NCBI GenBank assembly: GCA_964187785.1
Contig: OZ076415.1
Coordinates: forward strand, 13,454,001-13,518,000
Length of the DNA: 64,000 nucleotides
Source of the DNA: Amphiscolops sp. MND2022
Lineage: Eukaryota
Reading direction: 5' to 3'
Position 1 is the stretch's first letter, and every line of letters starts with the position of its first letter. The position numbers and the translations under genes are program-made. Below, in pieces: positions 1 through 56,599 of this stretch. The notes beneath the pieces are model-generated. The model did not search any database. It was not told the origin of the DNA and saw only the letters and a list, made by a program, of their open reading frames with translations.

Positions 1-299
1 AGCCACCTTGTGTCATAAGTTCTTAAATGACTCCCGAGAGATATTTAGGTATCCTATAGGGGCCAAGGAGTAAAACGTTTGAGTTTAGTTGAAAATTTAA
101 CAAATTTAAAATTGGTATCGATAACAAACGTGTCAATAGGGAGTTGTTTTAAACAAGCAGTTTCAAATGTAGATTATGTGTAGGTTTAATTTGTTGGTTA
201 TATGGCGTTGAACAGTAGAATATTTTTCTAACTTTGCATGTTCAGCTGATATTAGCCATGAAGAGATGTGTTTACCAATGAGAGGAAAGGATTGAGACT

Positions 300-960
300 T
301 GATTACTGTAGTGTGTATGAGGAGGAACTGGATCACGAAATGAGACGATACAAGCTTTGGAGGAACTGAGTAAAACGTTAGGGGAAAAGGTTAGCGGATT
401 ACGAAGAAAACAATTTGGTTTGGAAGAAGTTTGAGTTGCGAAAGAGCAGCAGCGTTACGTGCATAAGCATACATCTGAGTTTGCAATGACCAATTGGAAG
501 GAAGGTTTTGCAAAAAGAGGCGTAGATGAGTTCAAAATAACGGGTTTGAACTTTACTAAACTGTTTGTCCAAAAATACAATGGAGTACGTCTCTGATTGA
601 TTTTAAAGGATGTCTATGGATCCAATGATTGACGAGTGTTTGGATAGCGTATTTTAAAAAAAATTGAGGTGTTGGGTTTGTCACAAAAAATGACTAGCAG
701 CGTCGATGACTACAAAAATAAAAGAATCAATTTGTGAAGTAAGTGAAATAGGTACTTTTGTGTCAATTGAGATCGTGTAACTAAAACAAGTCGCGTTTTT
801 TTAAAAATGGTAATGAAGGAGAAGTTTTTTAAGGAAGTGTTTATTTGTTTGACACTCGCGACTATCTTGAGCAAAGATAGGGAACCATGATGGTTAGTGT
901 GGAATGTAATAAATTTGGTTGAAGGTTTGAAATAGAAATTCATTCACCCTATTGACCATG
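300..960 (-). pseudogene. pol: Integrase remnant of element A
   Basis: ECQTNKH zinc-finger remnant (~850-870) and VVIDAASHF (~690-715). The core after YAIQTLVNHWI appears deleted. Confidence 0.75.
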
Positions 961-1699
961 TGAATACGTTTTATCAAAAGCAGCGTAAAAGGTTCTGAAT
1001 GGTAAACAAATGCCAGTTTAAATATTAGATAGTTGAGTTTTGGTGAAAAGTTTTTCAAGAATACGGGAGTTCAGGGTGTAGTATTGGGTTAAGTGTGAAA
1101 TTGGGTCAGTGTATCAATGATGGAAATGTTTTGTAATGTGTGTATAGAAAGGAGTTAGCTTAAATAATTGTGATAAGGGCAAAAATTTTTTGTTTTGTTT
1201 CAATCAAATTTAAACTGTAGAAAGAATAAGGTCATCTTTTTGAGCTCGTCAAAGAATCGGTTTAGCTAAGAATGTAACTCTGGGAAGTACAAAAATTTCA
1301 AGGGTTTTACAATGAACAAAAAAAGGGCCAAAAATGGTAAAAATTGAGTGGAGGTGGCTTTAAAAGGAGTTTGAGTAAAAGCAATTGTTTTAAAAAATGG
1401 TATCACGTCTAGATAAATGAGATTTTGTTAAGTTTGATATTGTTATTTGAGAAAGACCTTTTTGATTTAGTCATGATAGTTTTCGTGTTGAATTTCATAA
1501 TCGTGGTGATTTGTAACACGCGGAGTTTGAGTTTGGGTAAAGCGTTGTTCTGAAATTCTTTTAGGAACCTCTTTTGTTTTCTTTTGAGCATCGTCACCTT
1601 CAACGAGAAGGAATTGAGTGTAAGTAACATTGTAACTTTTATCGTGGATTCGAAGTGAGAATTGATCATCACTATAGTTAATGAGAACTAGCTGGGAAA

Positions 1700-3990
1700 C
1701 ATTTTTCTGAGTAGGTAAAACTTTTCCATGTTTTACCAAGTTGTGAACTTGTTTTGAAAAATTGTTTGAAAATCCAATATGTGGTGGTAAGGTTTTAATC
1801 GTGATGACTGAGCATATTGGTAAAATTTAATTTCGTACCTAAAGAAAGGATAATTTGAAGGTTTGAGAATTTTTTTTAAAAACAATTTAGATCTATTTGA
1901 TTCGATGTAGGATTTCTTTTGCGTGTGAAAGGACATAACGTGGGGTCATGATCAGTAGAAGTGTTCATTGTAAATTTTGATCCAATCAATGATAAGATGA
2001 TCATGTGAGGTGAGTGCAAAAGGTATAGCAATCGTAGGCAGAACATTTCTGTTTTCGAGTTGTTAAAGTACGAGAGTTAAGTGGAGAGAGATAAGTTAGT
2101 TTTAGCATATCAGTATTAAAAATAGGCAGAAAGATTTTTGCACCTAAACCAAGTAGGGAAGGAACAACAGTGATGTGAAAGGGGTGAGAGGTAAGGAATA
2201 CAAGGTTTAGAATGGTTTGTGAGAGAAGTTTCAATTTCTTTAGGGAGTTTTTCTAATTCAGTAGTCCATTCGAAAAAAATGTCATCCTGGAGAAGAGAAT
2301 AAAATGGTTTAGGTGAAATGTGAAGTTTGTTTATAAATGTGGAGTAGAAGTTCATTGAACGAAAGAATCGCAACAGTTCCGTTTTAGAAGTAGGAGCTTT
2401 TAACTTATATCCACCATCAAATTTGGAAGAGACAGGTTCAATGGTTCCATTTTAAATTCCGTATCTACGAAATTCACCAGTGAGAACTATGAAATCTTTT
2501 TTCCGCAGCATTTTTGAGGTTATTAGAACTAGAGCCTTAGTAAATGTGTTCAATGAGCTCAAACATCTGAGATTTAGTGTGGGCTAAGAGGAAGATAGCT
2601 TCAAAAAAACGAGTGCAAAACTCTAATCAATACGTGTTTGAAACATCGAATACATTTGTATTGTGAAAAAACTTTGAAGCCCTTTGAGACCATAAAAACC
2701 TCGGATGAAAGCATAAAGTTTATCTCCGGACGAGACACTTTTGAGAGCAATAATTTCTCCATTGAGAGGCGCATGTACATATGCATACATAAAAGCAATG
2801 GCAATTTTGAATTTTTGTTGGCTCTGGCTAATTGTGGAGCAAGAGGTTCAATACGCCATGATTCAAAAGCTTGGTCAGTGTTAGAGGTTATATGTCTAGC
2901 ACCAAGGACGACTTTAATTGAGCCTCGCTCAGTCAGGGATGTTAAAGAATGGCTTCAAAAAAGTATTTCCCTAACACGAAATATCTGATGAAGCGGAGGT
3001 ACTTTGTCTTTTGTTTTTGTATTGTTCTATCTCATCTAGTAGGTTTGTAAATTTTTCTCTATAGTGGATAGAAACTTTAGTAGGTCCTTCAGTTTGGAGT
3101 TTAGCAATAGGATTGAGGCGTATTCTAAAAGATGTAGCAATGTTATCTGCATCATTACGATGCGTGGCCTAGCAATGTTGATATTTCACTAAAATCGATC
3201 TCAATTGTATTCAATCATCTTCAGTAACATCGAAGTTTTGAAATTCGAATAAAATGAGAAATTGTTGAGTTTCTGGTGATGATGGTAATGAAGGAAGTGG
3301 TCGTTATAATTTGAGAAGGTTAGAATCTCCATTTTAGTTTTTCGTAGCGAGGTACGACGAACAGGAGGTTTGAGTACAGAGAAATTTGGGTAGTATGAAA
3401 GAAATGGAGTAAGAAAATGAGAGTTGACATCATTAGATTTATTTTGTGGAGTTCTAATACTTGTGGAAGTAACTTCGATGTAGCCAATATATCCTGGTAG
3501 AAGAGTTGGAGATTGATATCTTGGATTATAACAGAATAACTATTTGTTTCAGTATTGACCTTTTGGTAGACTTGAAGAAACTTAAAGGTGGGGTTGAAGC
3601 GTGTGTTAAAATATGGGTGGGGAGTTGATGAAAATATGACTTCATTTTTTGAGGTTTTGAATGTTACCGGAAGTGTAAGTTGAATTTGAAAATAAATAGA
3701 TTGAGAAGCGTTTAGTTTATATTATCTTCCATTTTTTTTCTGATCGTATTGATGTCAAACAAATCGGTAATCTTTTTCTTTATTGGCACTAAAAGGAAGA
3801 GTGTTGATTTGAGACTATGTGGTGTGGTATATTTGAAAGATGTACCAAGATTGTTTTATCTGATATCTGCTCCGGAAAATGGGGTTGCTAAAACACGAGC
3901 TAAACCTTTGAGGAAGTGATCGGCTAATAATGTAAATGTGGGTTGATTGAAAACACAAAAAAGTACCACTATCTTACAAATTGAGCGGTT
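1700..3990 (-). pseudogene. pol: Protease-RT-RNaseH remnant of element A
   Basis: DSG protease motif; SFRIRLNPIAKLQT...KVSIHYREK; YAFIRGFYGLKG; YxDD decayed to FFEA; HISPKPFYSLLQDD...WTTELEKL; RH motifs. Colinear with elements B and C. Confidence 0.85.
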
Positions 3991-4249
3991 CAAGTTTAAG
4001 AGGATAAGGGATATCTTCAGGAGGTTTAAAATAAAATAGGTTAACAAATCAAGTGGAAGGAGTGATACCATTAGCATGAGTGTCCTCTGATGCAGAAGGA
4101 AGTACATACGTATGATGTGAAGAGATGATTGGGTGATACATATTGATGTCAAATATAGGTTCAGTAAAAGAAGAAGTAGATTCTTGAGTCGAGTTAATGG
4201 TTGATTTACAGATATTACTTTAGTGAGAATTGGAGTTCCAATGTGATCA

Positions 4250-6900
4250 ACTTCCATAACGATCAGTTCTATAAATGTCCGTGCGTGGTCTGAAGGGTGA
4301 ACGATGTTGTGATTTGTACTGTTTGAAAGATGAGTTATTAAAACTCGAGCAGCCTTCGCGAGAACGTGAATAAGATTTATGAGGATGCTGGATTAGAAAA
4401 TGGTCTCTTCTACGAGAAGATTTAGAATCAAATTCAACAGGATGGGGGTAGAAGATTGAAGTTGATCTCAGCGGGATCATTTGCGATCAGAGTTTGAGGA
4501 ACGGTAACGTGGTTTTTGTTCATCAAAGAAAGGGTGATGTCAATCAGTGGTTCCACGTGAGAGTTCTTGAGGTTTGAGTTTGTTCCAGAGTAAAATTGTC
4601 TGAGCTGTGTCAACCATTTTTACAAGTGAATGGAAATAAATGGAAAGTTCAGAGGAGCTTGAATTGAATTCAACTCGGTGTTTGATACCAAAGTCTTTCA
4701 TTTTTTTTGTCAAAATTCCGTTACAGTTAAGCTTTCTAGTAGATGGGTGTTCATTGTACCAGCCTTGATTAACGTAGGCTTCAACTTTTGTGTGCATAGT
4801 GTCGTACATTTGATAACGTACATTTAGCAAATGAGACTGCGTCAAGTTGTGTATGGAATGCTTGTTCTTGAGGAATAGAATTGTACTTTGGAAATTTGTA
4901 GGAAGAAAGACCTGTCATTCTGGAATACTTTAGGTAAACGATCATACCAATTTGAAACAGTTCCTGTGAGAGAACAAGTAAGGAGGGACATACGTCTTGA
5001 GCGCCATCTTAAATATGATTGGATATTGCGGGTTGAGGTCCAAAGTTACATTAGCACTAAAGTGAATCTAAATTTTGTCAGGTGGGTATGTATGATCCAA
5101 GCATTCGGAAAGGTTATTGGGATCAAAAAAGCAGCAAAAGAAACTCAAGGAATCGTTGGAAATAAATGTTGAGAAAGTTGTATTATATCAGAAGGGATTG
5201 GGCGTGTAGAAGTAGAAGATGGAAGAGGAATGTGAGGTAAAGGAGGCGGGAATGAAGGTTGAGGGTAGTTGTGCAAACCTGGATGGAGAAAAGCATTCGG
5301 ATCGTAAGCAGTAGGACTGAACGGGGGATTTTTTAGGTTTGGACGAGATGGCGGGGGATTGTGAATAGCAGAAAGAGGTGGGTGCGAAAATGGAGCGGAG
5401 AAGTAGATTGAGGTTTGGCAGTGTTGGGTTGATGAGTAAAAAGTGCAATAGTAGAGAGTGGTTGAAAAAAAATTGTTTGCTAGGATTTGTGAAAGTAGGA
5501 GTAGGAGAAGCAGATGGCGTATTTTTTTGTTGTGGAGAATGTGAATGGCAGCTTGAGTAGTTACGAGAGGCGGAAACGTTGGTGGAGGGGTTGGATCTGA
5601 GTTAGGAGGAGGATTACCAATAGTAGGTGCTGAAATAAAAACATTTGTGTCGGACAGTATTGTTTGTAAGTCAACATTAGAGTTCGTAGAGTTACTTTCA
5701 ATTTTTGGAGGTTGAGGATTGTGCTTCTCAAAAGGTCTAACAGGACGTTGGAGATCAAGACTTTTAGTGCAGCTGAGATTATCAAAATTTAGATCAAGAA
5801 AAAGCATCTTGAAATTTAGCATCCGAAATAAGTTGGTATTTATTATTTAAAAAAATTGCGATGGAAACGAAAGTGAATTCCAATTTGTTCTTAAGTTTAA
5901 GTGTTTAAAATAACATTTTCAAATAATTACTTTTGGAAAGGATGGAGTTGAAGAATATCAGAGCGAAGTAAATGACGTGGATGGGTTCTAATAGTTCGAA
6001 GTAGTTACATATTGGGGTTTCAACTAATTTTCTTCTTTTTGAAAGAATGTTTGTATTACAGACGGATTGATGGTATATTGAGGTAGATGGATTTTTTTTC
6101 AGGAAAACTTTAGAGAGGTAGGAAGCAATTGATATGTAAATATAAGTGGGACAAGTTTACTTCCGGAGTGTGTTAGAGGAGTTAAGTGGGATGTGAAGGA
6201 TATTGAAAAAAGGCGTTCATCTGGAGTTTCGATTAAAGAATGAAAGTCTATGTAATATAGATAGGACTCGTGTGTTAAAGTCGATCTAGAAAGATCTTTT
6301 GAGTAGGTTTCAAAAGAAAGAGGAACGGTGGATTTAATAAAAAAAAGTGTTGAGGAATTCGGAAAATTTTGTTCAGTATCACGTGAGAGACGATGATGAG
6401 TGAGTCAAAGGAAAACAGTGAATTAAAAGGGAATTGAAGGGGAATTAAAGGAGGGGAGCGTTCGTCATTAGGAGTGGCGATGAGGGTAAAACTTTGACTA
6501 TATTCTATCTAAGACAAAATCAGGATGGATGAATGGTTCAAAAGGAGGAGGATAACTATGTTTGAGGATATCATGGAGGCGAAATTGACAATGAAAGAGG
6601 AGCTGAGAGTACAAAAAGATGGTGGGAAAGAGTATAAAACTGATACCATTGAAGGTTTGAGTGGGGGAAGATGACAAGCATTAAAAAAGTGAGGTGATGG
6701 TGATAATTATTATGAGGAGTGAAAAAGAAATGGATATGGAAAGTTTAGGTTTAGATGAATAAGTGGGAGTTTAATTTGAACAGAGAAGAGATGGAAGCAA
6801 GAAAGTTAGAGACGAGATTAATATAGGTATGAAGGTTGATGAAAAGGGGATGAAAGTCAAATTATCAATGAAAACAGATGCAACTCTTTTTCAAATGAGG
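4250..6900 (-). pseudogene. gag: gag remnant of element A (N-terminal domain, Pro-rich linker, capsid-like core, Arg/Ser-rich tail)
   Basis: RRMSLLTCSLTGTVSNWYDRLP and VNQGWYNEHPSTRKLNCNGILTK match the gag of element C (SLTGTALSWY, VEKGWCDENASTINLKCNEIFTKG). Pro-rich stretch at 5145-5822. Confidence 0.75.
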
Positions 6901-7193
6901 ATCATGAGCAAAACAAGCACAGCAAAAATATAGGAGACAAAAAAGATGATTGTGGCAAGATTTTTGGTTAAAAATAATTTGAATGAGACAAAAATAAACT
7001 ATCGTGGGATGAAATCTAGCCGCCTTCTAGTTTCAACGACGAGAGCAGAGATCCCAAAAAGGCCCAAATGGTACAATAAAAACAAAAAATACAAACATGA
7101 TTGTCTAAAGAAGGCCTTAAAGGTATAGAAAACAGTAGAGATGAGGATTTGTTTTAGGAATAAACAAAGGAAATGTTGAACTAAATTTTATTT

Positions 7194-7477
7194 GGTTAGT
7201 ACAGAAGACGAAAGTCAACAAAAACGATTAGTACAGAAGGATGGAAATTGTACCGATTAGATGAAAGTCGAATCAAAATTGATTAGTCTAGAGGAATACA
7301 ACTTGTACCGACTACAAGGTCGAACCACTGGTAAAAGATGGTTAGTGCAGAAAAAGAAACATTGTACCAGCAGAGGCGCTGAATCACTGTTGTGATTAGT
7401 ACAGAAATAGTTGTATCGACGAAAGGAATGATGATGTACCGATAGTAATCATCGAACCAAACTGGTTAGTTCAGAAA
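7194..7477 (-). repeat. Leader array of ~55-bp hairpin/UACUAAY units, element A
   Basis: Recurring plus-strand motifs grttagtacagaa, ttgtaccga and gtcgaa(t/c)ca, 5-6 times. Confidence 0.85.
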
Positions 7478-7511
7478 GAAAGAATGAAGGACTGGAAAAG
7501 GAAAAAAATAG

Positions 7512-7526
7512 ATGATGGTCGCACCA
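7512..7526 (-). promoter_or_regulatory. Primer-binding site of element A (TGGTGCGACCATCAT)
   Basis: Starts with TGG a few bases inside the LTR. First 11 nt identical to the PBS of element C. Confidence 0.8.
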
Positions 7527-7529
7527 GTA

Positions 7530-7801
7530 CCTGAGTTTGGTATTGGTTTGATGTTCAATCTTCGAAGTTAGAACTTTAAGAGAAGCTAACAGAGCTGCAG
7601 TATTAGGTCTAGATATAGTGACAACTAGATGGTAATACGTTTAATCCTGTTGTGTTTAGAGTTATAAATCAATAGAGTTTTACAGTGATGAATACAAGTT
7701 AGATACATTTACATTCATTGCAGTGCAGGAAAGTCTAGACAGTTGAACTAGACATGTTAAAGATAGTGAATAATAAATCAATAGACATGTGTATCATTAC
7801 A
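7530..7801 (-). repeat. 5' LTR of element A
   Basis: Begins TGTAATGA on the minus strand. Shares agagctgcagtatta, ctagatat and aagtctaga blocks with the LTRs at 9179 and 26574. Followed by the PBS. Confidence 0.75.
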
Positions 7802-8446: not shown

Positions 8447-9178
8447 CTGTAAATAACAAAATTTTACAAACCTAGTTTCACATAGTGAGTAAGAGAGTCG
8501 GTAAGAGAGTCGGAAACGGAATTAAATAGTAAACGTCAAGTTAGGTTTTGATGCCATTGCGCATATAGGACGCTGATACGGTATAGAATGATTGTAAAAA
8601 AATCGTTAGAATCGCATTGGAAGTTTTTTTAAAAATTGAAAAACCCAAAAAGGTTTACAAGCGCTGCTCTTCGTATCCATCGCAGCCAAAAGATCTCGGC
8701 AGCACGATACTATTTTAAAAGCAGCCGCTAACTAGTAATTTAATCGCCGCTTTAAATCGAACCAACTTCATTTTCAGTTTCGTCACTTTTAGAGTGCAAT
8801 GATGACATAAATTGAGTAATGGAGAAACTAAAAATTGGGAAGTTTTGAAACGAAACGATGACGTAGATGAAATATATCCATGTTTTGGTTGTAAATGTTA
8901 CACTGCATTGCAATCATTCAAAGTGATTTCGAATAGTTCACTAAGGATACATTAAAATCTGGCCCTCAGCTGAGTTAGAACCACGCTTTCATGCTTTAAA
9001 AACGCATGCTAACAACTAGGCCGAGTAGTATAAAGTTTCCAGTTGTTACATGGTGCTAGATCTCAATCAATCCCATCCAACATCTTTTATTGACAGCATA
9101 GTACTTGGCTGAGAGTATTGCAATTTAGTTCCAAGCGCTGACCTAATTGACTATCACGTTAAACTTACTATTGATTTT

Positions 9179-9492
9179 TGAAGTACTTGTATGTTGTTGG
9201 GAATGTTATGTTATTTCAGATTAGAGATGTTCAGTACTGTTAAGTACTTCAAGAAGACGCTAGCAGAGCTGCAGTGTTAGATCTAAATAAAGCTCACAAC
9301 TTTCTGGTAGCACGTTTATTTCAGATGTGTTGTGGATATAAATGAAAAGTGCTTCACATTTTTAGATTATGTGATGAATTTTAAAGAGCATATAATTCTT
9401 CAAAGTGCCTACATGCAAGTCTAGATGTTTAGACAATTCAGACAAAAGGTGGGGGATGCATCAAAAGGTATTTCATCAAAGGTATATCAACA
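9179..9492 (-). repeat. Solo/chimeric LTR of the element B family
   Basis: Minus strand TGTTGATATACC...GTACTTCA. Homologous to 26574-26878. No PBS, PPT or matching TSD next to it. Confidence 0.85.
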
Positions 9493-10058
9493 CAAAAATT
9501 TTTCCGCGACTCTTTTATTAATAATCAAGATTGAGGTTACAACACCAATAATTCAGAAAATTTTTGAAAAAAAATGCTAGAAGTTGATAAACAAGAGGAG
9601 TACGTTTAAATACCCATGCGCTCTAAGGCTCATGTCGTCTAATGCTCAAAAAGTGCAAATTCTCGTCGAAATGCTCAGGGCGGTTTTTGTTGACTTTCAG
9701 CGCGGTGTGAAAATATTCCAAAGGGCAACATGTGGCCAACTGAAAGACAGTTTCTGCGAATGTTGGTCGCATACATTCTGTGGTAGTACCACTGAAGAAA
9801 ACTGTGTTAGCCGAACATATTTTCTTACGAAATACGCCAACTAAAAACTATCCCGTTTGACGCTACAAAACACTTGGGAAACCGAAAAGAAATCGGCCAT
9901 GTTGTTGATGAATTTCGTTTGTGAGTTCCCGGGTTTCCCTTCCATACAAAAACAGGTCAATCATACTCTGCCATCATACTCACAGTGTGATTCCAGGCTG
10001 ATCATACTCTGGACCATAAAGGTTTTTGGTTCCAGGCTTACCATACTCTGGACATATA
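9493..10058. repeat. Duplicated copy of the flank of B's 5' LTR (matches 26879-27541)
   Basis: Near-identical sequence (caaaaatttttccgcgactc...ctctggacatat) with two indels. Ends inside the foldback repeat. Confidence 0.9.
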
Positions 10059-11499
10059 TGGTCGTCGCAATGCTAAGGGCGGCTTTTGTTGACTTCATCC
10101 GACCGGGTTTTAAAAAAATATGAGGAAACTCAAAACTTAGAAATGTGTGTTGGAGTTCGGAGAAAGGATGTTCTGGTGTAGTTTTAATTAATAAGAAGAG
10201 ATGGTTTTAAGTTTCTGGGAAGCACAGGAAGGTTTATAATATTTTCTACGAGTAGAGTTTCAACTATATCTCAAGTCATATTTTCGAGTTATAAATATAT
10301 CTTGATATTATCCTTTCTGTACGTGAGACTAGAGCAACATGCAATTTCTAGCTTGAAACAATTCGAGAGAGGTGGGGTTAATAATAATATTCTTTGGGTT
10401 CGAGTCGAATTCGAAATAGTGTAAGGATTTGAATAGGTTTTCTTTTTAGTAATAGAAATCAAAGTTTTAAATTTTTGCATGTTTTTGTGTAATTACATCG
10501 TTTTTGTTGTAGTGAGTTGATCTTTTTACTTCGAGCAGCGTTTGAAATATATTTGACGTTGAAGTACCAGGAACAATTTTCATGTCAACTTAAGCGCTCA
10601 TCTTGACGTCATTTCTGAGAAACTAAATCAGAATTGGTATTGAGGCGCTTCAGTACCAGGTTGGCAGCCTGGTCAAAATTGAAAATTGCGAGATAATTAC
10701 ATTGCGTTCACGGATTGGCTTGTTGTTGATGAGAGTTGAAATCATGTTGGGGAGTCATGGGCGCAAGGGCTTCAATTTTAATGATGATTAGTGCAGGGGA
10801 TGGTGGCGGTTGAGGAAATGATTCTTTTATTTGACAAAGACGGTCGGGAAGATGTAAGCAGATTTTGGGAAAATTAAGATTATTTTATTATGGGGTTATT
10901 TATTTAATAATTATTTAAATAATAATAATTTTTTTATTTCTTATTATTATGGTCTTATTATGGGGGGATTTGAATAGTGAGGGGTTGACAACATATTTGC
11001 GTAAAATGCAAAGATTTAAAGTTAGATAAGCGTGAGGATAGTTACTGATTGATTAGCTATTTGGTTCAAATCAGTTGCAATTGAATTTAATTCAGTGAGT
11101 TGTTTTGAAAACAGTTCGTCTAAATACTGTTCATGTTGCTTGAGAGCGTTGTTATAGTTTTCAAGTTTTTGTTCTTATACTACAGAGTGGACATTTTTTT
11201 CGTTGCAGAGCCTGCTTCACCTGGGGCAAATGAGGGCGTTTCGGGTGACGGGGCATACAATTTTGTAGTTTTGTGGTTAATCCTCTGACAGCGGGGCGCT
11301 GTTGTAGTAAGGAAATAATAGCAACAGCTTTTTTTGTTTTTTTGCAGACAGTGCTTCGGGTGTTTGTGTTTAGGTTTTTTGTGATGAAGTTTTTATGCGA
11401 TAAAGAAAATATCAAGAGGAGTGAATGAAACGAAGCGGTATTGCTTGAAGAAAAACAGCGAAACAAATGGGTTATTGGAGTGTTAAAACGAAGAACTAG

Positions 11500-26000: not shown

Positions 26001-26231
26001 GAGAAGCATCAAAAAACAAGCATTGCAAAAACGTAAGAGATGAAATTGATAGTAGCAAAATTTTAGGGTAAGAACATTTTAGGCGTTAAGGAAATTATCG
26101 GCGGATGAAATCAATCATTAATTGGTAGACGACTAGAAGAGCGATTGCAAAAAATCCAAAAACATACAACAAAAACACAAGCATAAAAACAGAATCATTT
26201 AAAGAAAGAATGTAAAAAACGGTGAAATTAT

Positions 26232-26526
26232 GTGTACCAACAGGATTGTGGAACCAAAATGGATTTGATTAGTACAGAACGGATTTTAAGTTTGTACCGA
26301 ATACGAGGTCGATCCACTTTTGAAGGTGGTTAGTACAGAAGAAGGGTTATACCAGCAGAAATACTGGATCAAATGTGGTGATTAGTCCAAAAGAATAATT
26401 CCCGACTGAATGTCGAATCACTTTTCGTTTGTGATTAGTAGAGAATGATTTGTGCCGAATTTCAATGAAAATGGTCTGTACCGACAGAACGTCGATTCAT
26501 TTTTGATTTTGTGACTAGTACAGAAA
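26232..26526 (-). repeat. Leader array of ~55-bp hairpin/UACUAAY units, element B
   Basis: Same three-motif unit and same unit order as 7194-7477. Confidence 0.85.
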
Positions 26527-26555: not shown

Positions 26556-26571
26556 GAACATGGTCCCACCA
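26556..26571 (-). promoter_or_regulatory. Primer-binding site of element B (TGGTGGGACCATGTTC)
   Basis: TGG start 2 nt after the LTR end. Similar to the PBS of A and C. Confidence 0.8.
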
Positions 26572-26878: not shown

Positions 26879-27479
26879 CAAAAATTTTTCCGCGACTCTT
26901 TTATTAGTAATCAAGATTGAGGTTACAACACCAATAATTCAAAAATTTTTGAAAAAAAATGCTAGAAGTTGATAAACAAGAGGAGTACATCTAAATACCC
27001 ATGCGCTCTAAGGCTCATGTCGTCTAATGCTCAAAAAGTGCAAATTCTCGTCGAAATGCTCAGGGCGGGTTTTGTTGACTTTCAGCGCGGTGTGAAAATA
27101 TTCCAAAGGGCAACATGTGGCCAACGGACAAAAATAGCAAACTTGTTGAAAGACAGTTTCTGCGAAAGTCGCATAGTGTCGCTCTGATACTCCGAGGGTT
27201 GGCGATACTGTGTATTTTAACCACTAGCAGCGACAGCTAACTCTGTTGGTCGCATACATTCTGTGGTGGTACCACTGAAGAAAACTGTATTAGCCGAACA
27301 TATTTTCTTACGAAATACGCCAACTAAAAACTATCCCGTGTGACGCTACAAAACACTTGGGAAACCGAAAAGAAATAGGCCATGTTGTTGATGAATTTCG
27401 TTTGTGAGTTCCCGGGATTCCCTCCCATACAAAAACAGGTCAATCATACTCTGCCATCATACTCACAGTATGATTCCAG

Positions 27480-27716
27480 GCTGATCATACTTTGGACCAT
27501 AAAGGTTTATGGTTCCAGGCTTACCATACTCTGGACATATATTATCCAGTCTATGATACGCCATGTTCCATAAAAAAGCAAATTTATGGTTCCAGTCTGA
27601 CCATAGTCAGTGCCATATATGGTTCAGTCAATGATTAACCTGAACCATAAACATTTATGGCCCAGAGTATGGTAAGCCTGGAACCATAAACCTTTATGGT
27701 CCAGAGTATGATCAGC
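27480..27716. mobile_element. Foldback/MITE-like element with 56-bp inverted arms
   Basis: 27480-27535 is the reverse complement of 27661-27716 with 1 mismatch. Built from catactctgg/accataaa sub-repeats. No TSD seen. Confidence 0.7.
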
Positions 27717-29503: not shown

Positions 29504-32500
29504 AAAACAAAAGTGGGCCTTCTAACACTTTGAGGTTTGCAAACATATGTTTAGTCCTGAGGAGGCATCGAACCGACGATTATATGCTTGGTAAGTGTGC
29601 ATGGCTACTGGCTTTCAATCTATGGAATGAAAAAATAACTGTTCAAAAGTGGAACATTCTGTCGTTTCAAAAATTAGAAAAACAAAAACTGATTGAGGTC
29701 TGAGTTTCCAAATGATTAGTTATGTAAATTATGCAGTTCAGACTTTGTCGCCAGCGTTTTGAAAGTAATAATGGAAACGTTTTCAAGATGTCAAGATTCA
29801 AGTTAATGTTCCCTTCCAAAAGGAACGATTGTAACATCTAATGATTAAATTTCTAATACCCCATCAGGAGGATTAAATGAGTTGTAAAAGTTTTATTTAC
29901 TCATACCTCAGGTTTTTTTGGAAAATACCAACTAGTTGAAAACCAATGGAGAACTTCAATTTTGCTGAAACAAAACTGGGAGAGGTGGAATTGTTGTTGC
30001 TGGCTAGCCTTAACAAAAGTGTTTAATACTTGACTTGACTTTCGCAATGAGGAATCGTTTTTGTTGGGTTTAAAAATGGTTTTTGGTTTAACGAGTCAAC
30101 AAAGATGCATGTTCTTCATTTTTAAAAAGACCTTCAAGAATCAGAGTGTGAGAAGACGTTGTATCTGAAACAAGACGATATAAACTGAGAAATCAAAAAC
30201 ACACCATTGACTTATGTTTTAGTCGCTTCTAGTTGTCAGCGGGTATTATTTTGCGAGTTCCGAAGATGTCAAACCACAGAGGTCAAACATTTAAGAAATT
30301 GTTGCAGTGAAAAGTGCATTGTTTTCAAGGACGGAACGTGTACTTACCACAAGTAATGAGAGGGCCTTAACCGAAAGTGACTGTGTTTAAAGTTTTTCTT
30401 TCAAAAAATGAGTTTTAACCATAATGGTTCTTTTATTGATTGACACCCTAAAAAACGATATCGAAACAATATTTGTTCTGAATATGCAACCTGAAACGAG
30501 ATTCTCAATGTGCTGCTCACTGCTAAATGTTTCATTTTTATTATCAAAAGTTCATCTAATAGAATGAAAGGTATTCAAAAAATTACAGTAAAACAAACAA
30601 ACAATAAGTTTTTCCATTAGATACAACCCTAATTTTCGCAAAAATTTAGATGATTGGAAAAAAATTTTTGTAACCCTATGACACAATAAAAAGCTTGAAA
30701 ACTTATAACCTGCAGAATCGTTCAACCGATAAACAACTTGGTGAACTTTGAATTAAATCCACAATACAAGAGACCGTAAGTTTATTTTTAAACCTTAAAA
30801 TAGTAACTAGAACCGATTTCGAAAGATTAGAAAAAATGCGTATTTAAACTTTAACTTTTGAAGTGAATAAGTTAGCAAACTGTATTGGATCAACACTGTG
30901 TTGGATTAACCGGAGTCTTTTCAAAAAAATTTCTACTCAAGTCTTTATGAATTTACTGATTTGAATCTTTTAAAATTAACGGGATGAATTAGTCGACCTC
31001 CAAAGCAGCTATTTTTGTCGTTAAAGCAGAAACGTTATATTAACTGTGCTATTCATTCTTTTTGTTGTTTTTGCTTGGTCTATTTATTCGATTTCTAAAT
31101 TTTAGCTGCAAACTTGAAGTATCAATCTCATCTTTCAGTTGAGGGGAAAATTTCCAAAAAATTAATATGATAAATAGTACAAAAAAACTAATCCTTCACA
31201 ATTGATACCAACTGTAAAATTTCCAGAAAAGTGGATCATAGAAAGTCAGGTTCAAAAGTTTTACGGTATACATCTTACAAAATCACACTAAAGAGCTAAC
31301 ACCGCTTTAACCGGTTGCATCACCTCGTTTAACCGAACTAGAAAATGCTGACTTTGGACTGACGCAAGAATACTAGTTAATGCTGGCTGAAAACATGTGA
31401 AAAACCTACGATATAAAAGATGAAAAATCTTTCCAATACTTCTTTCTGACAACTTTTGAAATCAAAAGTGACAGCTAACTAGTTTTTGAAAACAATATGT
31501 TGTTAATGTTATACCTTTTGAACCAAATACTTCAATCGATGATGGTGGTTAACCAATTGAAAAAGATTATCTTGAAATTATGTTCAACCCAATAAAAAAT
31601 GAACGAAGTGATTTGAATGTTTTGTGAATAACACAGCAAATAACTCCATGTACAAAGCAGCAACATCTTTCTTTTGTTAAAGAAGGACATAGAACAACAT
31701 TTCGACAACAACATACAATTTTGTGGGGGTTTGAATATCATTCTATTAGATTCGAATTATGGAACAAAACGTTTGTTTTTGGTTTCAATTCTTCGAACTT
31801 TACAGAGAACAAGATATAGCATGGAAGCTTGAATTATACTGAATGAATACCAAAAATTATAACTAACTTCTACTGAGTTGTTGGACTTCTAACTCAACTA
31901 CTTCAATTTCTTCGTGTTTTCCCAAAGAACAACACTGCAAAGCGAAAAAACAGAACTTCCTAAGAACTTTAACAAAAACAGTATATCAAACCTTGCTTGT
32001 TTTTGATCATTTGATCAAACAAGTAAAGCCGAAGAACTAAGTGATCTTTGCCGAATTATGGTAAAAACTGCTGAGTTTGTTAGAACGAAATTACCAAGTA
32101 TTCCGGAAGGGCATCAAAGCAGTTCACTATTTTTGGCAGAGCGCCGATACTAAAATCGCTACATGACAGCTGCAATCGCATAAGATTTTGAAAAATTTGT
32201 CAATGAAAAATGTCAGTAGCGGGAAAAGTTATGGAAATTTAATTTTGTTGCTTGCCTGTACATCGCTTTATTATCAACTTTTTGATTATATCAGACAACC
32301 TGTACTTGTGATGTCTGTAACTTCAAAAAACATATAGTTGCATGAAAGTGAAAAACGGAAAAACAGAAAAGCTTGGAAATTACAACAAGTCAAAGCAGTG
32401 AACCGATGGAATTTTTTCAACTGGATGAAACTCCGGTACCTTATGAGTAACCAACACAACTGAGTCCCGTTTAACTCGAGAAGCAAGAGAGGATTTCTTT

Positions 32501-32837
32501 AGTTTCCAGTGTTATTAACAGAGTACTTCACAGAAATTTACTGACGAAAGTGATAAAAGCTCATGAAAGTTTTACCATCTCAACGAGTTTATTCAGTCCA
32601 ATATGATTGACTCTTCAATTTGTCAAAATAATTTTTGATCTTTCAAGTGATGATAGCAACTCTCAGTCATCTAGGAAAACAGGTTTCACATACTAAATAA
32701 CTCTCATTTCATCCCAAGCAAGCATAGAACCTTCAAATATGATCTTTTCAAACCGCTAACAAGAATTTGAAAACTCAGTCCTACATTTTTTATGAAATTT
32801 TACTGCATAAATTTTTTGGGTAGAGAACAGTAACTTT
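29504..32837 (+). repeat. Left arm of a 3.3-kb inverted repeat (decayed coding-like sequence)
   Basis: Reverse-complement homology to 34313-37714 along its whole length, roughly 80% by eye, with a perfect 112-bp block at 32650-32761 / 34393-34504. Confidence 0.9.
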
Positions 32838-34312: not shown

Positions 34313-37300
34313 AAAGTTACTGTTCTCTACCCAAAAACTTTATGCAGTAAAATTTCCTAAAAAATGTAGGACTGAGTATTCAAATCTTTTCGTGTTAGCG
34401 GTTTGAAAAGATCATATTTGAAGGTTCTATGCTTGCTTGGGATGAAATGAGAGTTATTTAGTATGTGAAACCTGTTTTCCTAGATGACTGAGAGTTGCTA
34501 TCATTACTTAAAAGATCAGAAACTAGGTTGACAATTTGAAGAGTCAATCATATTGGACTGAATAAACTCGTTGAGATGGTAAAACTTTCATGAGATTTTA
34601 TCACTTTTGTCAGTAAATTTCTGTGAAATACTCTGTTAATACCACTGGAAACTAAAGAAATCCTCTCTGGCCTCTGGAGTTAAACAGGACTCACTTGTGT
34701 TGGTTACTCTTAACGTCCAGGAATTTTCTCCAGTTGAAAAAGTTCCACCTGTTCACTTTTTTGACGGGTTGTGATTTCCTGTGGTTTCTTCCAAGCTATT
34801 TTTTTCTTTCTTTTTTCTAGTTTTATGCTTCTATATGTTTTTTGAACTTACAGTTATCACAATTACAGGCTATGTGAGATTATCAAAAATTTATTATTAT
34901 CACATTGGAGAGGCAGGCAACAAAAATAGAAATCCATGAGTTTTTCCCTGATTTGACGTTTTTTATCAACAAACTTTAAAAAATCTTGGGCAATTGCAGC
35001 TGTCATGTATTGATTTTAATATCGTTGCTATGTCAATTATAGTAAACTTCTCTGATGCTCTTCTGGAATTCTTGGTATATTCGTTCCAACAAACTCAACA
35101 GTTTTTTACCATACTTCGGAAACTGTCACTCAGTTCTTCGGTTTGACTTATTTGATCAAAAAAGGAGTGTTTAAAGCTTTGCTTTTTGTAAAAGCTCTTC
35201 CGAATGCTTTTTCGCTTCCCAGTTTTTTTTCTTCGGGAGAACACTAAGAAGTTGAATTAGTTGAAGTTCAACCACTCAGTAGAAGTTAGTTTTGAGCTTC
35301 GCAAATCCAATTCATCATAATTCAACTTCCATGCTGCATCTTGTGCTCTGTAAAGTTCGACGAAATGAAAGTAAAAAAAGGTTTTGTTCTTTTTTTGGAA
35401 TCTAATGGAGTGATATTCAAACATCCACAAAAGTGTATTTTGTTGTCGAAATGTTGCTGTATCCCTTTTTACAAAATAGAAAGAAGTTGCTGCTTTGGAC
35501 GTGGTTTTATTTGCTGTGTTATTCACAAGGTTTTTCAATCAGGTCGTTCAAAATTTTTTGGGTTGAACATAACTTCAAGATAATCATTTTCAATGGATAA
35601 ACCACCACAACAATGAAGTAGATTATTCGGTTCAATAGGTAAAACAATGATAACATTTTTTTTGAAAACATATTGCTAGAACTTTTTATTTCGAAAGTTG
35701 TCGAAAAGAAATTATGGAATTTTTTTCATCTTTTATATCATGAGTTTTTCATATGTTTCAAGCATTTACCAGTCTTTGTCGGTCAGTCCAAAGTCAGCCA
35801 ATTGTTGTTCGGTTAAACGAGTTGCTGTAAAAGGTTAAAGCGGTGTTAGCTCTTCAGTGATTTTAAAAGATGTATACTGTATAACTTCTGAACCTGGTAC
35901 TCTTTGATCCATTTTTCTGGGAACATTAGAGTTGGCATCAAATACGAAGGATTAGTTTTTTTGTAATTTTTAATATATGAGATTTGGAGAGTTTTCCCTG
36001 ATCTGAAAGAATAGTTTAATAATATAAGTTCATAATTAAAATTTTGAAACTGATCGAAAAGACCGAGCAAAAACAACAAATATAGTGAGAAACACAATTG
36101 ATATAACGTTTCTGCTTTTACGACATAAAATGCTGCCTTGGATTTCGAGTAATTCTTCCCGTCAAAAATAAAAGATTTCCATCAGTTAATACATAAATTC
36201 CTGAGTAGAACACTATTTGAAAAGACTCATTTTCATTTGTTATTTCAACACAGTTTACTGACCAATTCTTTTCAAAAGTTAATGTTTCAATACGCATTTT
36301 TGCTAAATTTTCGAAATCGTTTCTGGTTACTATTTAAGATTTTAAAACACGTTTACCGTCTACTGTATTTTGCAGTTAAATAACCAAGTTCACGAAGTTG
36401 TTTACCGGTTGAACGATTTTGGAGGGTGTTAGTGTTTGTGAGGTTTTTTTCACTGTGTTAAAGGCTTCCAGAAATTTTACTCCAAATATCTACTTTTCTC
36501 CGAAATTTAGGGTTGTATTTAACGAAAAAACATAATTGTTTGTTTGTTCATCACATTCTTCCTCCTGATTTTTAGAAAATTTTTCCTTTTACTAGATGAA
36601 ATTTTGAAATCAAAAGTGAAACATATAACAGTGAGCAGCACATTGAGAATCTTTTGATAATGTTTTGATCATTTTTCAGATAATTTGGTAAACTGTGCAT
36701 GGTAACGGTGGACATAAGAAATCTATTTGTTTTGTTGCTTCTTTTTAGGATGTGAGTCAATAACAAAACCATTATGGTTGAAAACTCATTTTTTGAAAGA
36801 AAACTTCTGACACAGTCACTTTCGGTTAAGGCCCTCACATTACTTGTGGTAAGTACACGTTCCGTCTTTGAAAACAAAGCCGTTTTCACTGAAAAAATTT
36901 CCAAAATGTTTGACCTCTGTGGTTCGACATCTTCGGAAAATCCAAAAACGAATCTATTTGATAACTAGAAGCGACTAAAAGTCAAAGTGTTTTTCAATTG
37001 TCAGTGGACAACATCTCGGTTCAGATACAATGTCTTCTCTTACTCTGATTCTTCAAGGTCTTTTCAACAATGAAGAACATGCATCTTTGTTGACTCGTTC
37101 AATCAGAAATTTTTTTTAAACCCAACAAAATTGATTCAACATTGCAAAAGTCAGGTCAAGTGCTAATAATTATCGTTAAGGATAGCCAGAAACAACAATT
37201 CCAACTCTTTTAAGTTTGTTTCAGCAAAAATGGTATTCTCTTTTCGTTTTGAAGCTTCTGGAATTTTCCAACAAACCTTAAGAAAGAACTGAAATAAAAC

Positions 37301-37714
37301 TTCTACAAATCACTAGATCCCTCCTGATGGGGTATTAGAAGGAAGGTTATTCACCAGACGTAACAATCGTTCCTCTTGAAAGAGAACAATAACTTGAATC
37401 TTGAAATCTTGTAAAAGTTTCCAATATTACTTTCAAAACGCTGGCAAAAAAGTCGGAGCTGCTTGCATTTTACATAACTAATCATTTGGAAAATCAGACT
37501 ATCAGCCACGTTGTTGTTTCAGTCAGCGCAGTTCAAAGGAAATGTTCCCGACTACGGAAATGTTTGTTCTTCTAAATTTAGATTCTTCAAAAATTAAACT
37601 GAAAACCAGTAGCAGGCACACTTACCGAGCAAACAACCGGTCGGTTCCATGCCTGCTTAGGACTAGACATCGGTTTGCAAAACCTAAAAGTGTCAGTGGG
37701 CCACTTTAGTTTTT
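34313..37714 (-). repeat. Right arm of the 3.3-kb inverted repeat
   Basis: Mirror of the left arm. Shared translated remnants such as KT(A/V)EFV.T..P.IPE.HQ.S and YMTAAIA.DF.KFV. Confidence 0.9.
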
Positions 37715-50612: not shown

Positions 50613-51494
50613 AATTCAGATATCAACAACCTTCACATATCAACAAGATCACACGGTTTGAGAACGACCACTACTTCTTTAGTAGTAAACTACATTAGTG
50701 AAAGTAAACTGTGACCTAAAGGAAAATTCAGATATCAACAACCTTCACATATCAACAAGATCACACGGTTTGAGAACGACCACTACTTCTTTAGTAGTAA
50801 ACTACATTAGTGAAAGTAAACTGTGACCTAAAGGAAAATTCAGATATCAACAACCTTCACATATCAACAAGATCACACGGTTTGAGAACGACCACTACTT
50901 CTTTAGTAGTAAACTACATTAGTGAAAGTAAACTGTGACCTAAAGGAAAATTCAGATATCAACAACCTTCACATATCAACAAGATCACACGGTTTGAGAA
51001 CGACCACTACTTCTTTAGTAGTAAACTACATTAGTGAAAGTAAACTGTGACCTAAAGGAAACTCAGATATCAACAACCTTCACATATCAACAAGATCACA
51101 CGGTTTGAGAACGACCACTACTTCTTTAGTAGTAAACTACATTAGTGAAAGTAAACTGTGACCTAAAGGAAAATTCAGATATCAACAACCTTCACATATC
51201 AACAAGATCACACGGTTTGAGAACGACCACTACTTCTTTAGTAGTAAACTACATTAGTGAAAGTAAACTGTGACCTAAAGGAAAATTCAGATATCAACAA
51301 CCTTCACATATCAACAAGATCACACGGTTTGAGAACGACCACTACGCCGCTGTCGTGGCCCGCTCCCGTTCTGCGCTGGAATTGCAGAACAATCAGTTTC
51401 GGAAGGGGCCATGGGTGAACATCAAAATCATTAACTTGGTTTTATTGAACTAGTAAACTACATTAGTGAAAGTAAACTGTGACCTAAAGGAAAA
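50613..51494. repeat. 112-bp tandem array, 6 near-identical units plus a 7th carrying a 105-bp insert
   Basis: Unit starts at ~50615, 50727, 50839, 50951, 51063 (111-bp variant), 51174 and 51286. Insert at 51346-51450. Confidence 0.97.
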
Positions 51495-55562: not shown

Positions 55563-55841
55563 TGTTCGACATACCGTGTCGCCTCTTCTTTCTCTTGTAT
55601 ATAAATGTTAATTCACATATGGTTCTGACTGCGTCCTCCAACGTAATTCCTGTCAGTAAAAACTTTTGGTTCTGACTACATCTTTGTACGTAATTCCTGT
55701 CAGTTGCTAGTTTCTGGTTCTGACTACGTAATACCGTAATTCCTGTCAGTTGCATTTTCTTCGTTTCAAACACCGTAAGGTGAATTCGTGTTGATTTTTC
55801 CTTTCTTTCGTTCCAACCGCAGACGTGCGATTCGTGTTGGT
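55563..55841 (+). repeat. Leader array of ~47-bp bulged stem-loop units, element C
   Basis: Outer stems start at 55625, 55672, 55720, 55766 and 55813, each with an inner stem and a 3' ATTC(C/G)T bulge. A simple CGACA/TGTCG hairpin lies at ~55567. Confidence 0.88.
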
Positions 55842-56599
55842 TTTCAAATCGTGGGAATTCGGCGATTCCTGCTAGTCACATTCTTTGGTTCTAGCCGCTT
55901 GGATCAACTTAAAAGAAAGTTGGCACATACCCTAACATATTTTCTCTTCTTTTCTTCTACACTATCTTGATATATACATATTAACTTTCTTAAACACTGC
56001 CGCGGATCAAAAGGACGAACTTCAGTTCTGATAATATCAAAACTATAACACAAATAATATCAAGATTATAATACAAAAGTTAGACTAAAAAACCTACCCT
56101 ACCTTTAATACTATTACTATCTAATACAAACTCAACTTTCAACACAAAAAAAAATACACAAATTCTCTCTTGGTAATGGTTTCAGTTGATACTTTAGTAC
56201 GCTTTTTACTTTTACTTTGGTTCTCCTTCGGTATACTTGCAGGTATTTCACTTTTCTTTGACAGATTTCTGGTCCCTTTCATACCAGGATTCTAATACTT
56301 TAAGTGAACATGCCTCATTCTGTCCAACTACCACCAATCTTTCACTCTCGTGTGATACATACTATAGTACTCCCTCTTTTTGGTCTTCTTGGAATCTATT
56401 ATACAATTTGTACGCTACTTTCACTAACATCTAATAAATTCTTACTCACCTTTTTAACTATAATTACTCTTTTTTTACAAATCATGTTTATAGACCTAAC
56501 ACTTCCATATCCTATCCATTTCACTACGCAATATATTCTCACCCAATATTTATTTTCTTTCTTAAACAATTTCTATTATGATTGATTTAAAATTCCCTA

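Follow-up and report, generated by a model that had tools for sequence, protein, structure and literature searches.

What is the tandem repeat that stands directly behind the primer-binding site (PBS) of a decayed LTR element in Amphiscolops sp. MND2022, and which step in the life of the element may it serve? The window in which it lies is the whole 64,000-nt stretch of contig OZ076415.1 analysed here, and contains elements A and B on the minus strand and element C on the plus strand. An initial annotation of this DNA described the repeat of element A as a leader array of hairpins with UACUAAY motifs, for packaging or for recruiting a STAR protein.

The elements that carry the array

The array is carried by Ty3/Gypsy elements with env, a kind of element covered by the part of the survey PMC13524379 available to us. 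LTRs, a PBS and the order gag-PR-RT-RH-IN, which define such elements, were all found. With the RT ORF of element C as query, 115 database proteins were retrieved; Pfam domains of full-length relatives are Retrotrans_gag, RT, RNase H and integrase, and tblastn aligns these relatives along A, B and C. Element A leaves the window before env, and in a young family-A copy pol is followed by a 923-aa ORF with the PF24664 Monjiviricetes fusion domain (E=5.8e-27), which gave no match among PDB sequences. Part of the LTR of element A (7564-7684) aligns to both LTRs of element B, which are 90.3% identical to each other. The array of element A lies 40 nt behind its PBS, and the genome has a tRNA-Met(CAT) gene with the GTCGCA end that matches this PBS.

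63..6401, minus strand: broken Ty3/Gypsy gag-pol of element A, which exits the window (tblastn of database relatives; Pfam domains of relatives)
7477..7516, minus strand: U/C-rich tract from the PBS to the first unit (sequence)
7517..7526, minus strand: PBS TGGTGCGACC, complementary to the 3′ end of tRNA-Met(CAT) (sequence and tRNA gene)
7529..7796, minus strand: 5′ LTR of element A, decayed, ends approximate (TGATA start and AGTAC end match young copies)
26231..26525, minus strand: array of element B, five units behind a PBS at 26562-26571 (covariance model)
55620..55750, plus strand: 47-nt repeat of element C, a different motif with stem, inner hairpin and AUUCCU bulge (fold and motif search)
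55851..55926, plus strand: single junction homologue of element C, first strand decayed in the window copy (present in 12 of 12 other C leaders)

In the genome these elements fall into three main families, A, C and D, whose RT-RH regions are 66-75% identical and whose Gag proteins all have a single CCHC zinc knuckle. In all three a long RS/RY-rich tract follows the knuckle, which is unusual for a gypsy nucleocapsid. Young family-A copies have extra conserved ORFs, one of ~380 aa before env and two of ~495 and ~300 aa after it, none with a significant Pfam match; together with env they appear to make up a complex-retrovirus-like gene set. Between array and gag, family A has three short hydrophobic ORFs of 45-48, 37 and 78 aa, and the stop of the third overlaps the start of gag. 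Homologous-looking short ORFs occur in family C (39-40 and 78-79 aa) and family D (37 aa). The 78-aa ORF had no Pfam match, and an Atlas search gave weak leads only (best 0.82). These leader ORFs are reminiscent of the small ORFs found upstream in MDG1 elements, as far as the consulted part of 10.1101/2025.03.14.642691 goes, but env is present here.

Several other repeats were observed in the window. The U5 of family A (9178-9260) has an inverted repeat, TTAAAGTACT...AGTACTTTAA, that closes a long hairpin directly before the PBS. Each LTR of element B has a palindromic repeat element inserted within it or next to it (9761-10059 and 27244-27716, 97% identical), and the interior of element B has duplications at 11919-12316/14299-14696 and 12674-14302/14715-16343 (99.5%). 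Moreover, there are an inverted repeat of 3.4 kb (29504-32837 / 34313-37713, 77% identical), a tandem array of a 112-bp repeat at 50613-51345, and a 484-bp duplication in the pol of element C.

Fold and conservation of the unit

The minus-strand repeat of UGRUU-CGAC..GUCG-GUACA and ACUAAY named in the initial annotation is present in the sequence, and so are the stem exchanges CAGC/GCUG (7381-7378/7371-7368) and CGAU/AUCG (7454-7451/7443-7440). The array, placed at 7194..7477, extends past this limit to about 7159. The unit had been taken for one hairpin; the hairpin is there, and two further helices, AAYCA/UGRUU and UGUAC/GUACA, had been missed. From the PBS outwards, the array of element A reads as follows.

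7433..7476, minus strand: junction unit 1, AACCA/UGGUU with CGAU/AUCG (covariance model, 36.8 bits; parser)
7407..7432, minus strand: unit relic, of which the decayed third strand alone remains (comparison with other copies)
7361..7406, minus strand: junction unit, AAUCAC/GUGAUU with CAGC/GCUG, which alone is predicted to fold as a three-way junction (60.1 bits; MFE z -2.49)
7302..7352, minus strand: junction unit, AACCA/UGGUU with CGAC/GUCG, one outer pair decayed (44 bits)
7249..7293, minus strand: decayed junction unit, alone without stable fold (21.1 bits; z 0.73)
7207..7238, minus strand: partial unit, first strand only (sequence)
7159..7206, minus strand: last unit, decayed, of the CAAC/GUUG type common to the sister families (21.3 bits; type table)

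In the window the covariance model found ten units, five in A and five in B and all ten on the minus strand, with no match in element C or in the 3′ LTR of B. The window leader of element A has a folding z of -3.06. Its own units are decayed, and for three of the four that were folded, unit 1 being the exception, the plus strand gave a fold at least as good.

The unit has about 45 nt and three helices, the outer UGUAC/GUACA (P1), then an unpaired U, the middle AAYCA/UGRUU (P2) and CRRY/RYYG (P3), and is predicted to form a three-way RNA junction. Arrays were parsed from sequence-only anchors that left both partners of each variable pair free. After exclusion of 22 stretches that were duplicates or had no unit, this gave 78 non-overlapping arrays with 377 units, 347 of them unique, and 0 units in 33,531 shuffled bases. 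Among 406 column pairs (n=347) the top MI-APC values belonged to the three variable P3 pairs, with within-helix cross terms, and to the middle P2 pair. Covariation between the ACUAAY Y and the UGRUU R is stronger inside one unit (MI 0.143) than towards the next unit (0.057); hence the middle helix pairs inside a unit that starts at UGUAC, and not in the register of the initial annotation. The P3 arms are CGAC/GUCG (103), CAGC/GCUG (47), CAAC/GUUG (16) and CGAU/AUCG (9), and the middle arms AAUCA/UGAUU (100), AACCA/UGGUU (42), AAUCA/UGGUU (33) and AACCA/UGAUU (15). In a low-decay set (90 of 104 units, chosen with a limited number per type), 95.0% of cells were paired, against 17-41% in slid controls, and two-sided changes occurred at 5 of 15 pairs, none of them in the outer helix UGUAC/GUACA. 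This covariation represents few inherited events, about five P3, three P2 and three P1 types, and RNAalifold on the gapped alignment recovered 3 P3 pairs only. A single hairpin with a free ACUAAY was rejected, since two further helices covary or are complementary.

How the outer arms pair depends on the model. In ViennaRNA folds of young arrays, computed by a model that has no coaxial and tertiary terms, GUACA paired with the UGUAC of the next unit (0.73) over its own (0.05). Orphan arms at either array end were absent from all 14 young arrays and occurred in 10 and 13 of 68 arrays overall; such clean ends count for the junction register, and a chain of hairpins would not predict them. The junction register is thus backed by clean ends, by the families with a single copy and, presumably, by the order of folding, and it stays model-dependent. 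Whichever register applies, ACUAAY is predicted to be mostly paired at five of its six bases; in young arrays these five had unpaired probabilities of 0.05-0.30, and the U one of 0.84. In the predicted folds, then, ACUAAY is two helix arms and a bulged U.

Selection on the unit is evident from young copies, which were located with a search pattern made from two of the strands of a unit. The initial annotation was to be refuted if stems were kept no better than loops; the outcome favoured it, since in orthologous units of 14 such copies the junction strands differ by 1.3% and the loops by 39.4% and 24.5%. Linkers in the same copies differ by 33.8% and the LTR end by 20.9%, and the unpaired UUC flank is invariant. 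The third strand, which lay outside the search pattern, differs by 0-2.9%. In addition, family-A copies found by protein search had intact arrays in 3 of 3 cases, with 6-7 units each. The description of the loops as freely varying holds well: 101 perfect units show 62 different sequences in one loop and 45 in the other.

The strand was to be told from a flanking U-G pair, which is invariant and so uninformative; it competes with A-U and C-G pairs and has a mean pair probability of 0.02 in 56 young units. In the same units this U·G conformer was calculated at -4.1 and the junction at -7.8 kcal/mol; it was rejected as the main fold and may be a minor state, its bases being invariant. At the variable pairs of low-decay units, U·G exceeds C·A by 29 to 8 and by 16 to 2, which points to sense-strand RNA, with the reservation that such counts are not phylogenetically independent; at the outer-helix pairs the numbers are 51 and 55. 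Older arrays of family A often show a U·G unit before an AGUAC/C·A unit, more often than by chance (9/22, P=0.006), and two such units may form a nested, circularly permuted junction, with about one extra pair per copy.

Sister families and occurrence in the genome

The leaders of families C and D contain the junction once. In family C it ends the structured leader as GUGC-U-AUCCR..NGGAU-CAAC..GUUG-GCAC in 12 of 12 leaders; in family D, CUGC-U-AUCUU..AAGAU-CAAC..GUUG-GCAG or a near match occurs in 20 of 23 stretches, and the other three have no primer site. Compared with A, the outer helix has two-sided changes from A-U to G-C and from G-C to C-G, and the middle helix from A-U to U-A and from C-G to U-A. 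A seven-base core, C-U-A / U-C / G-G, is invariant across A, C and D, and the ACUAAY of family A reads GCUAUC in C and D. The middle-arm loop of C and D has 34-78 extra bases. Since there is one copy per leader, the outer helix in C and D can only close the junction. On comparison of the sequences, the sister families would settle both the outer helix and the question of ACUAAY. The outer-helix probability in C and D went from 0.98 to 0.00 with flank length. A compensatory G predicted opposite CGGAU variants in C was absent in 7 of 7 (six have A·C at the fifth middle pair, one a further change), so this fifth pair is not required in C.

The initial annotation had drawn a parallel between the A unit and the UGGUU-CUGAC/GUCAG motif of element C. 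It is at most partial. The 47-nt repeat of C was rejected as a homologue, with no covariance-model match in C and a different fold, and the homologue of the A unit is the separate single junction about 100 nt downstream of this repeat.

In its own 1.07-Gb genome the two-strand unit pattern had 712 exact matches against 0 for the reversed control, and the second and third strands of the C/D type 2277 against 63; such genome counts are exact-pattern matches and hence lower bounds. A loose core pattern gave noise (36,993 matches vs 26,562 in the control). The PBS lies within 260 nt of the array start in 62 of 78 arrays, in which the tract between them has 26-165 nt, and young family-A copies have 3-8 units per array. 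Beyond this genome, viral contigs gave 2 single pattern matches and metagenome contigs 120 (23 of 64 parts scanned); none of these 122 matches was in an array, save one unrelated minisatellite contig. With a distant relative as query no viral contigs were found, and its matches in this genome are at 33-43% only. In the stretches inspected, candidates for a fourth family (CAGAU, CUGAU and similar matches) came with neither a primer site nor an element leader.

Against Rfam there was no match at the gathering score (best 25.4 bits vs 37 required), and three further element stretches gave 0 matches. Ribozyme identity was rejected, the unit having no unpaired catalytic core. A literature search, with poor coverage of subscription papers, returned nothing on such a leader array and no structurally defined packaging or export signal of invertebrate env-bearing gypsy elements. 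The array is a real, selected RNA module, apparently undescribed, and belongs to a known kind of leader signal.

Possible roles of the array

What stood of the proposed function is a repeated sense-strand RNA module with packaging as its best reading; recruitment of a STAR protein or a branch point, as conserved function, did not stand. We tentatively suggest, as quite possible rather than probable, that the array would be a multivalent Gag-binding signal that selects genomic RNA for packaging and, by analogy, would work like retroviral psi. A packaging signal is expected to be a conserved sense-strand RNA structure, and such a structure was found, with a model-dependent outer-helix register; the placement 3′ of the PBS, outside the LTR and once per genomic RNA also agrees with this expectation. 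Each unit would close co-transcriptionally as UGUAC-U-AAYCA / UGRUU-CRRY / RYYG-GUACA. A protein of the element itself, most probably Gag through its single CCHC knuckle, would recognise the core and with it the branch-point GG, and repetition of the unit would raise avidity. Families C and D retain one junction and repeat bulge motifs of their own upstream. An element-encoded reader is more likely because host proteins are common to all three families and the repeated tag differs. However, the unit loops are guanine-poor, unlike typical NC sites, which counts against packaging, and the leader placement also fits export or translation control.

To our knowledge, packaging and export signals in cis are structurally defined in only few vertebrate retroviruses. 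In HIV-1 the core packaging signal lies in the leader 3′ of the PBS and forms a tandem three-way junction; guanosines stand at or near the junction, and NC binds most tightly at an adjacent helix that is labile and G-rich (excerpts of PMC7395439 and PMC7599994). This resembles the present leaders, whose elements have a Gag with a CCHC knuckle, but the HIV-1 fold of those excerpts spans 150 nt and combines two junctions that are not identical, whereas the array repeats a near-perfectly paired ~45-nt unit in up to eight copies, with free loops, no sequence likeness and putative binding. The minimal packaging signal of RSV is likewise a small multi-helix junction in the interval from PBS to gag, before the splice donor, and the RSV leader too contains short upstream ORFs. 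As described in the sections of PMC7599994 that we used, it is single-copy, with a conserved tetraloop and an AUG linker as NC contacts; in the array the loops vary without constraint, and fixed bases are confined to the core and UUC flank. Errantiviruses with HSV/gB-type env share the gag-pol-env Ty3/Gypsy layout and the class III-type fusion protein (PF24664), but the available part of PMC13524379 describes no leader structure, its 7 text supplements hold no match to the PBS of these elements, and the elements here are longer, with extra ORFs.

Tandem repeats also stand immediately 3′ of the PBS in the env-bearing elements gypsy, ZAM and Idefix of Drosophila, where these 5′-UTR arrays are insulators or sites at which proteins bind double-stranded DNA. 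In the present array, by contrast, inverted arms covary across variable spacers and show G·U pairs on the sense strand; these spacers and the G·U bias are incompatible with a site in double-stranded DNA. This bears on the decidedly unlikely reading in which the junction is a DNA-level site or a signal for Pol or the primer, through RT docking or through dimer linkage by strand exchange between genomes. The junction does adjoin the PBS, its second strand is one base off the PBS in family A, and identical arms permit the swapped and nested pairing to which the order of U·G and C·A units (9/22) would correspond. Complementarity between array and primer tRNA, however, is at most 7 nt, and C and D have lost both the resemblance to the PBS and the GUAC palindrome, for which reason the palindrome was rejected as a dimer signal. 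Origin from a duplicated U5/PBS junction, a likeness seen in A only, is unlikely.

Recruitment of a host STAR/KH protein (SF1, QKI, GLD-1) by the ACUAAY copies, or their use as branch points, appears very improbable. In its favour, the hexamer is intact in 245 of 347 units (the longer motif more often reads UACUAAU, 156 of 347, than UACUAAC, 72 of 347), young copies do not vary in the unpaired UUC flank, and in CAGC-type units UACUAAU is followed after 14-16 nt by AG, a branch-point/acceptor-like spacing that may be a family-specific splice acceptor. STAR domains bind extended single strands, and a STAR element would keep its hexamer single-stranded and conserved across homologues; that of the array is predicted to be mostly paired, its Y covaries as part of a base pair, and it is missing from the C and D junctions. 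Regarding a branch point, the pyrimidine tract precedes the motif instead of following it, and no conserved donor-like site was found upstream of the array in 7 young leaders. A perfect-looking ACUAAY repeat can thus arise as a by-product of helix arms.

The lack of a donor pattern in these 7 leaders also weighs on an unlikely alternative, that the array is a nuclear-export or localisation element for unspliced RNA, bound by a Rev/RRE-like accessory protein or a CTE-like host factor, as it leaves no obvious problem of exporting unspliced RNA. Known export elements, moreover, usually lie in env or the 3′ UTR, and the array is in the leader. On the other side, multimerisation boosts export elements and the array is tandem, young copies hold several extra ORFs around env, and family-specific repeated motifs fit co-evolution with an element protein. 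Control of translation of the three short membrane ORFs and gag, by ribosome recruitment, shunting or a packaging/translation switch, seems rather unlikely. These ORFs lie between array and gag, with homologous-looking ones in C and D, and the last overlaps the start of gag; in RSV, leader uORFs balance translation against packaging (PMC7599994, in part). But the distance from junction to first ORF varies widely across families, and small independent units, in 3-8 copies among young copies, suit a binding array over an IRES fold.

The leaders offer a natural minimal module of ~45 nt with compensatory variants in all three helices, an invariant seven-base core, loops that tolerate 80-nt inserts and 1-8 copies. 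Hence genome recognition by a single-knuckle Gag, and the avoidance of cross-packaging by sister families, become testable with short RNAs and an isolated domain. It is conceivable, though unlikely, that the leaders hold a modular RNA address code, in which an ancient junction core common to all families would be joined to a family-specific, multiplied structured tag: in A the junction itself, in C the AUUCCU bulge together with its covarying 2-bp pseudoknot, and in D the GUUUA internal loop. In that case each Gag or accessory protein would pick its own genome among thousands of co-resident relatives. The array could then link genomes to one another at assembly as well, since strands from adjacent units, or from two separate RNAs, can make up an A junction.

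The repeated motifs of the sister families have features of their own. In the 47-nt motif of family C, with 4128 exact genome matches, a 5′ flank of GG goes with a CC bulge (23 units) and one of CG with a CG bulge (13 units), and the stem switches from CUGAC/GUCAG to CCAAC/GUUGG alongside this change; the flank-bulge covariation is a candidate 2-bp pseudoknot. A circularly permuted copy of the motif lies within the middle arm of the C junction. Family D has a third motif, CYG-RUUUA-UCA..UGA-NA-CRG, with an internal loop, in several copies behind the PBS, and its arms covary as CUG/CAG or CCG/CGG.
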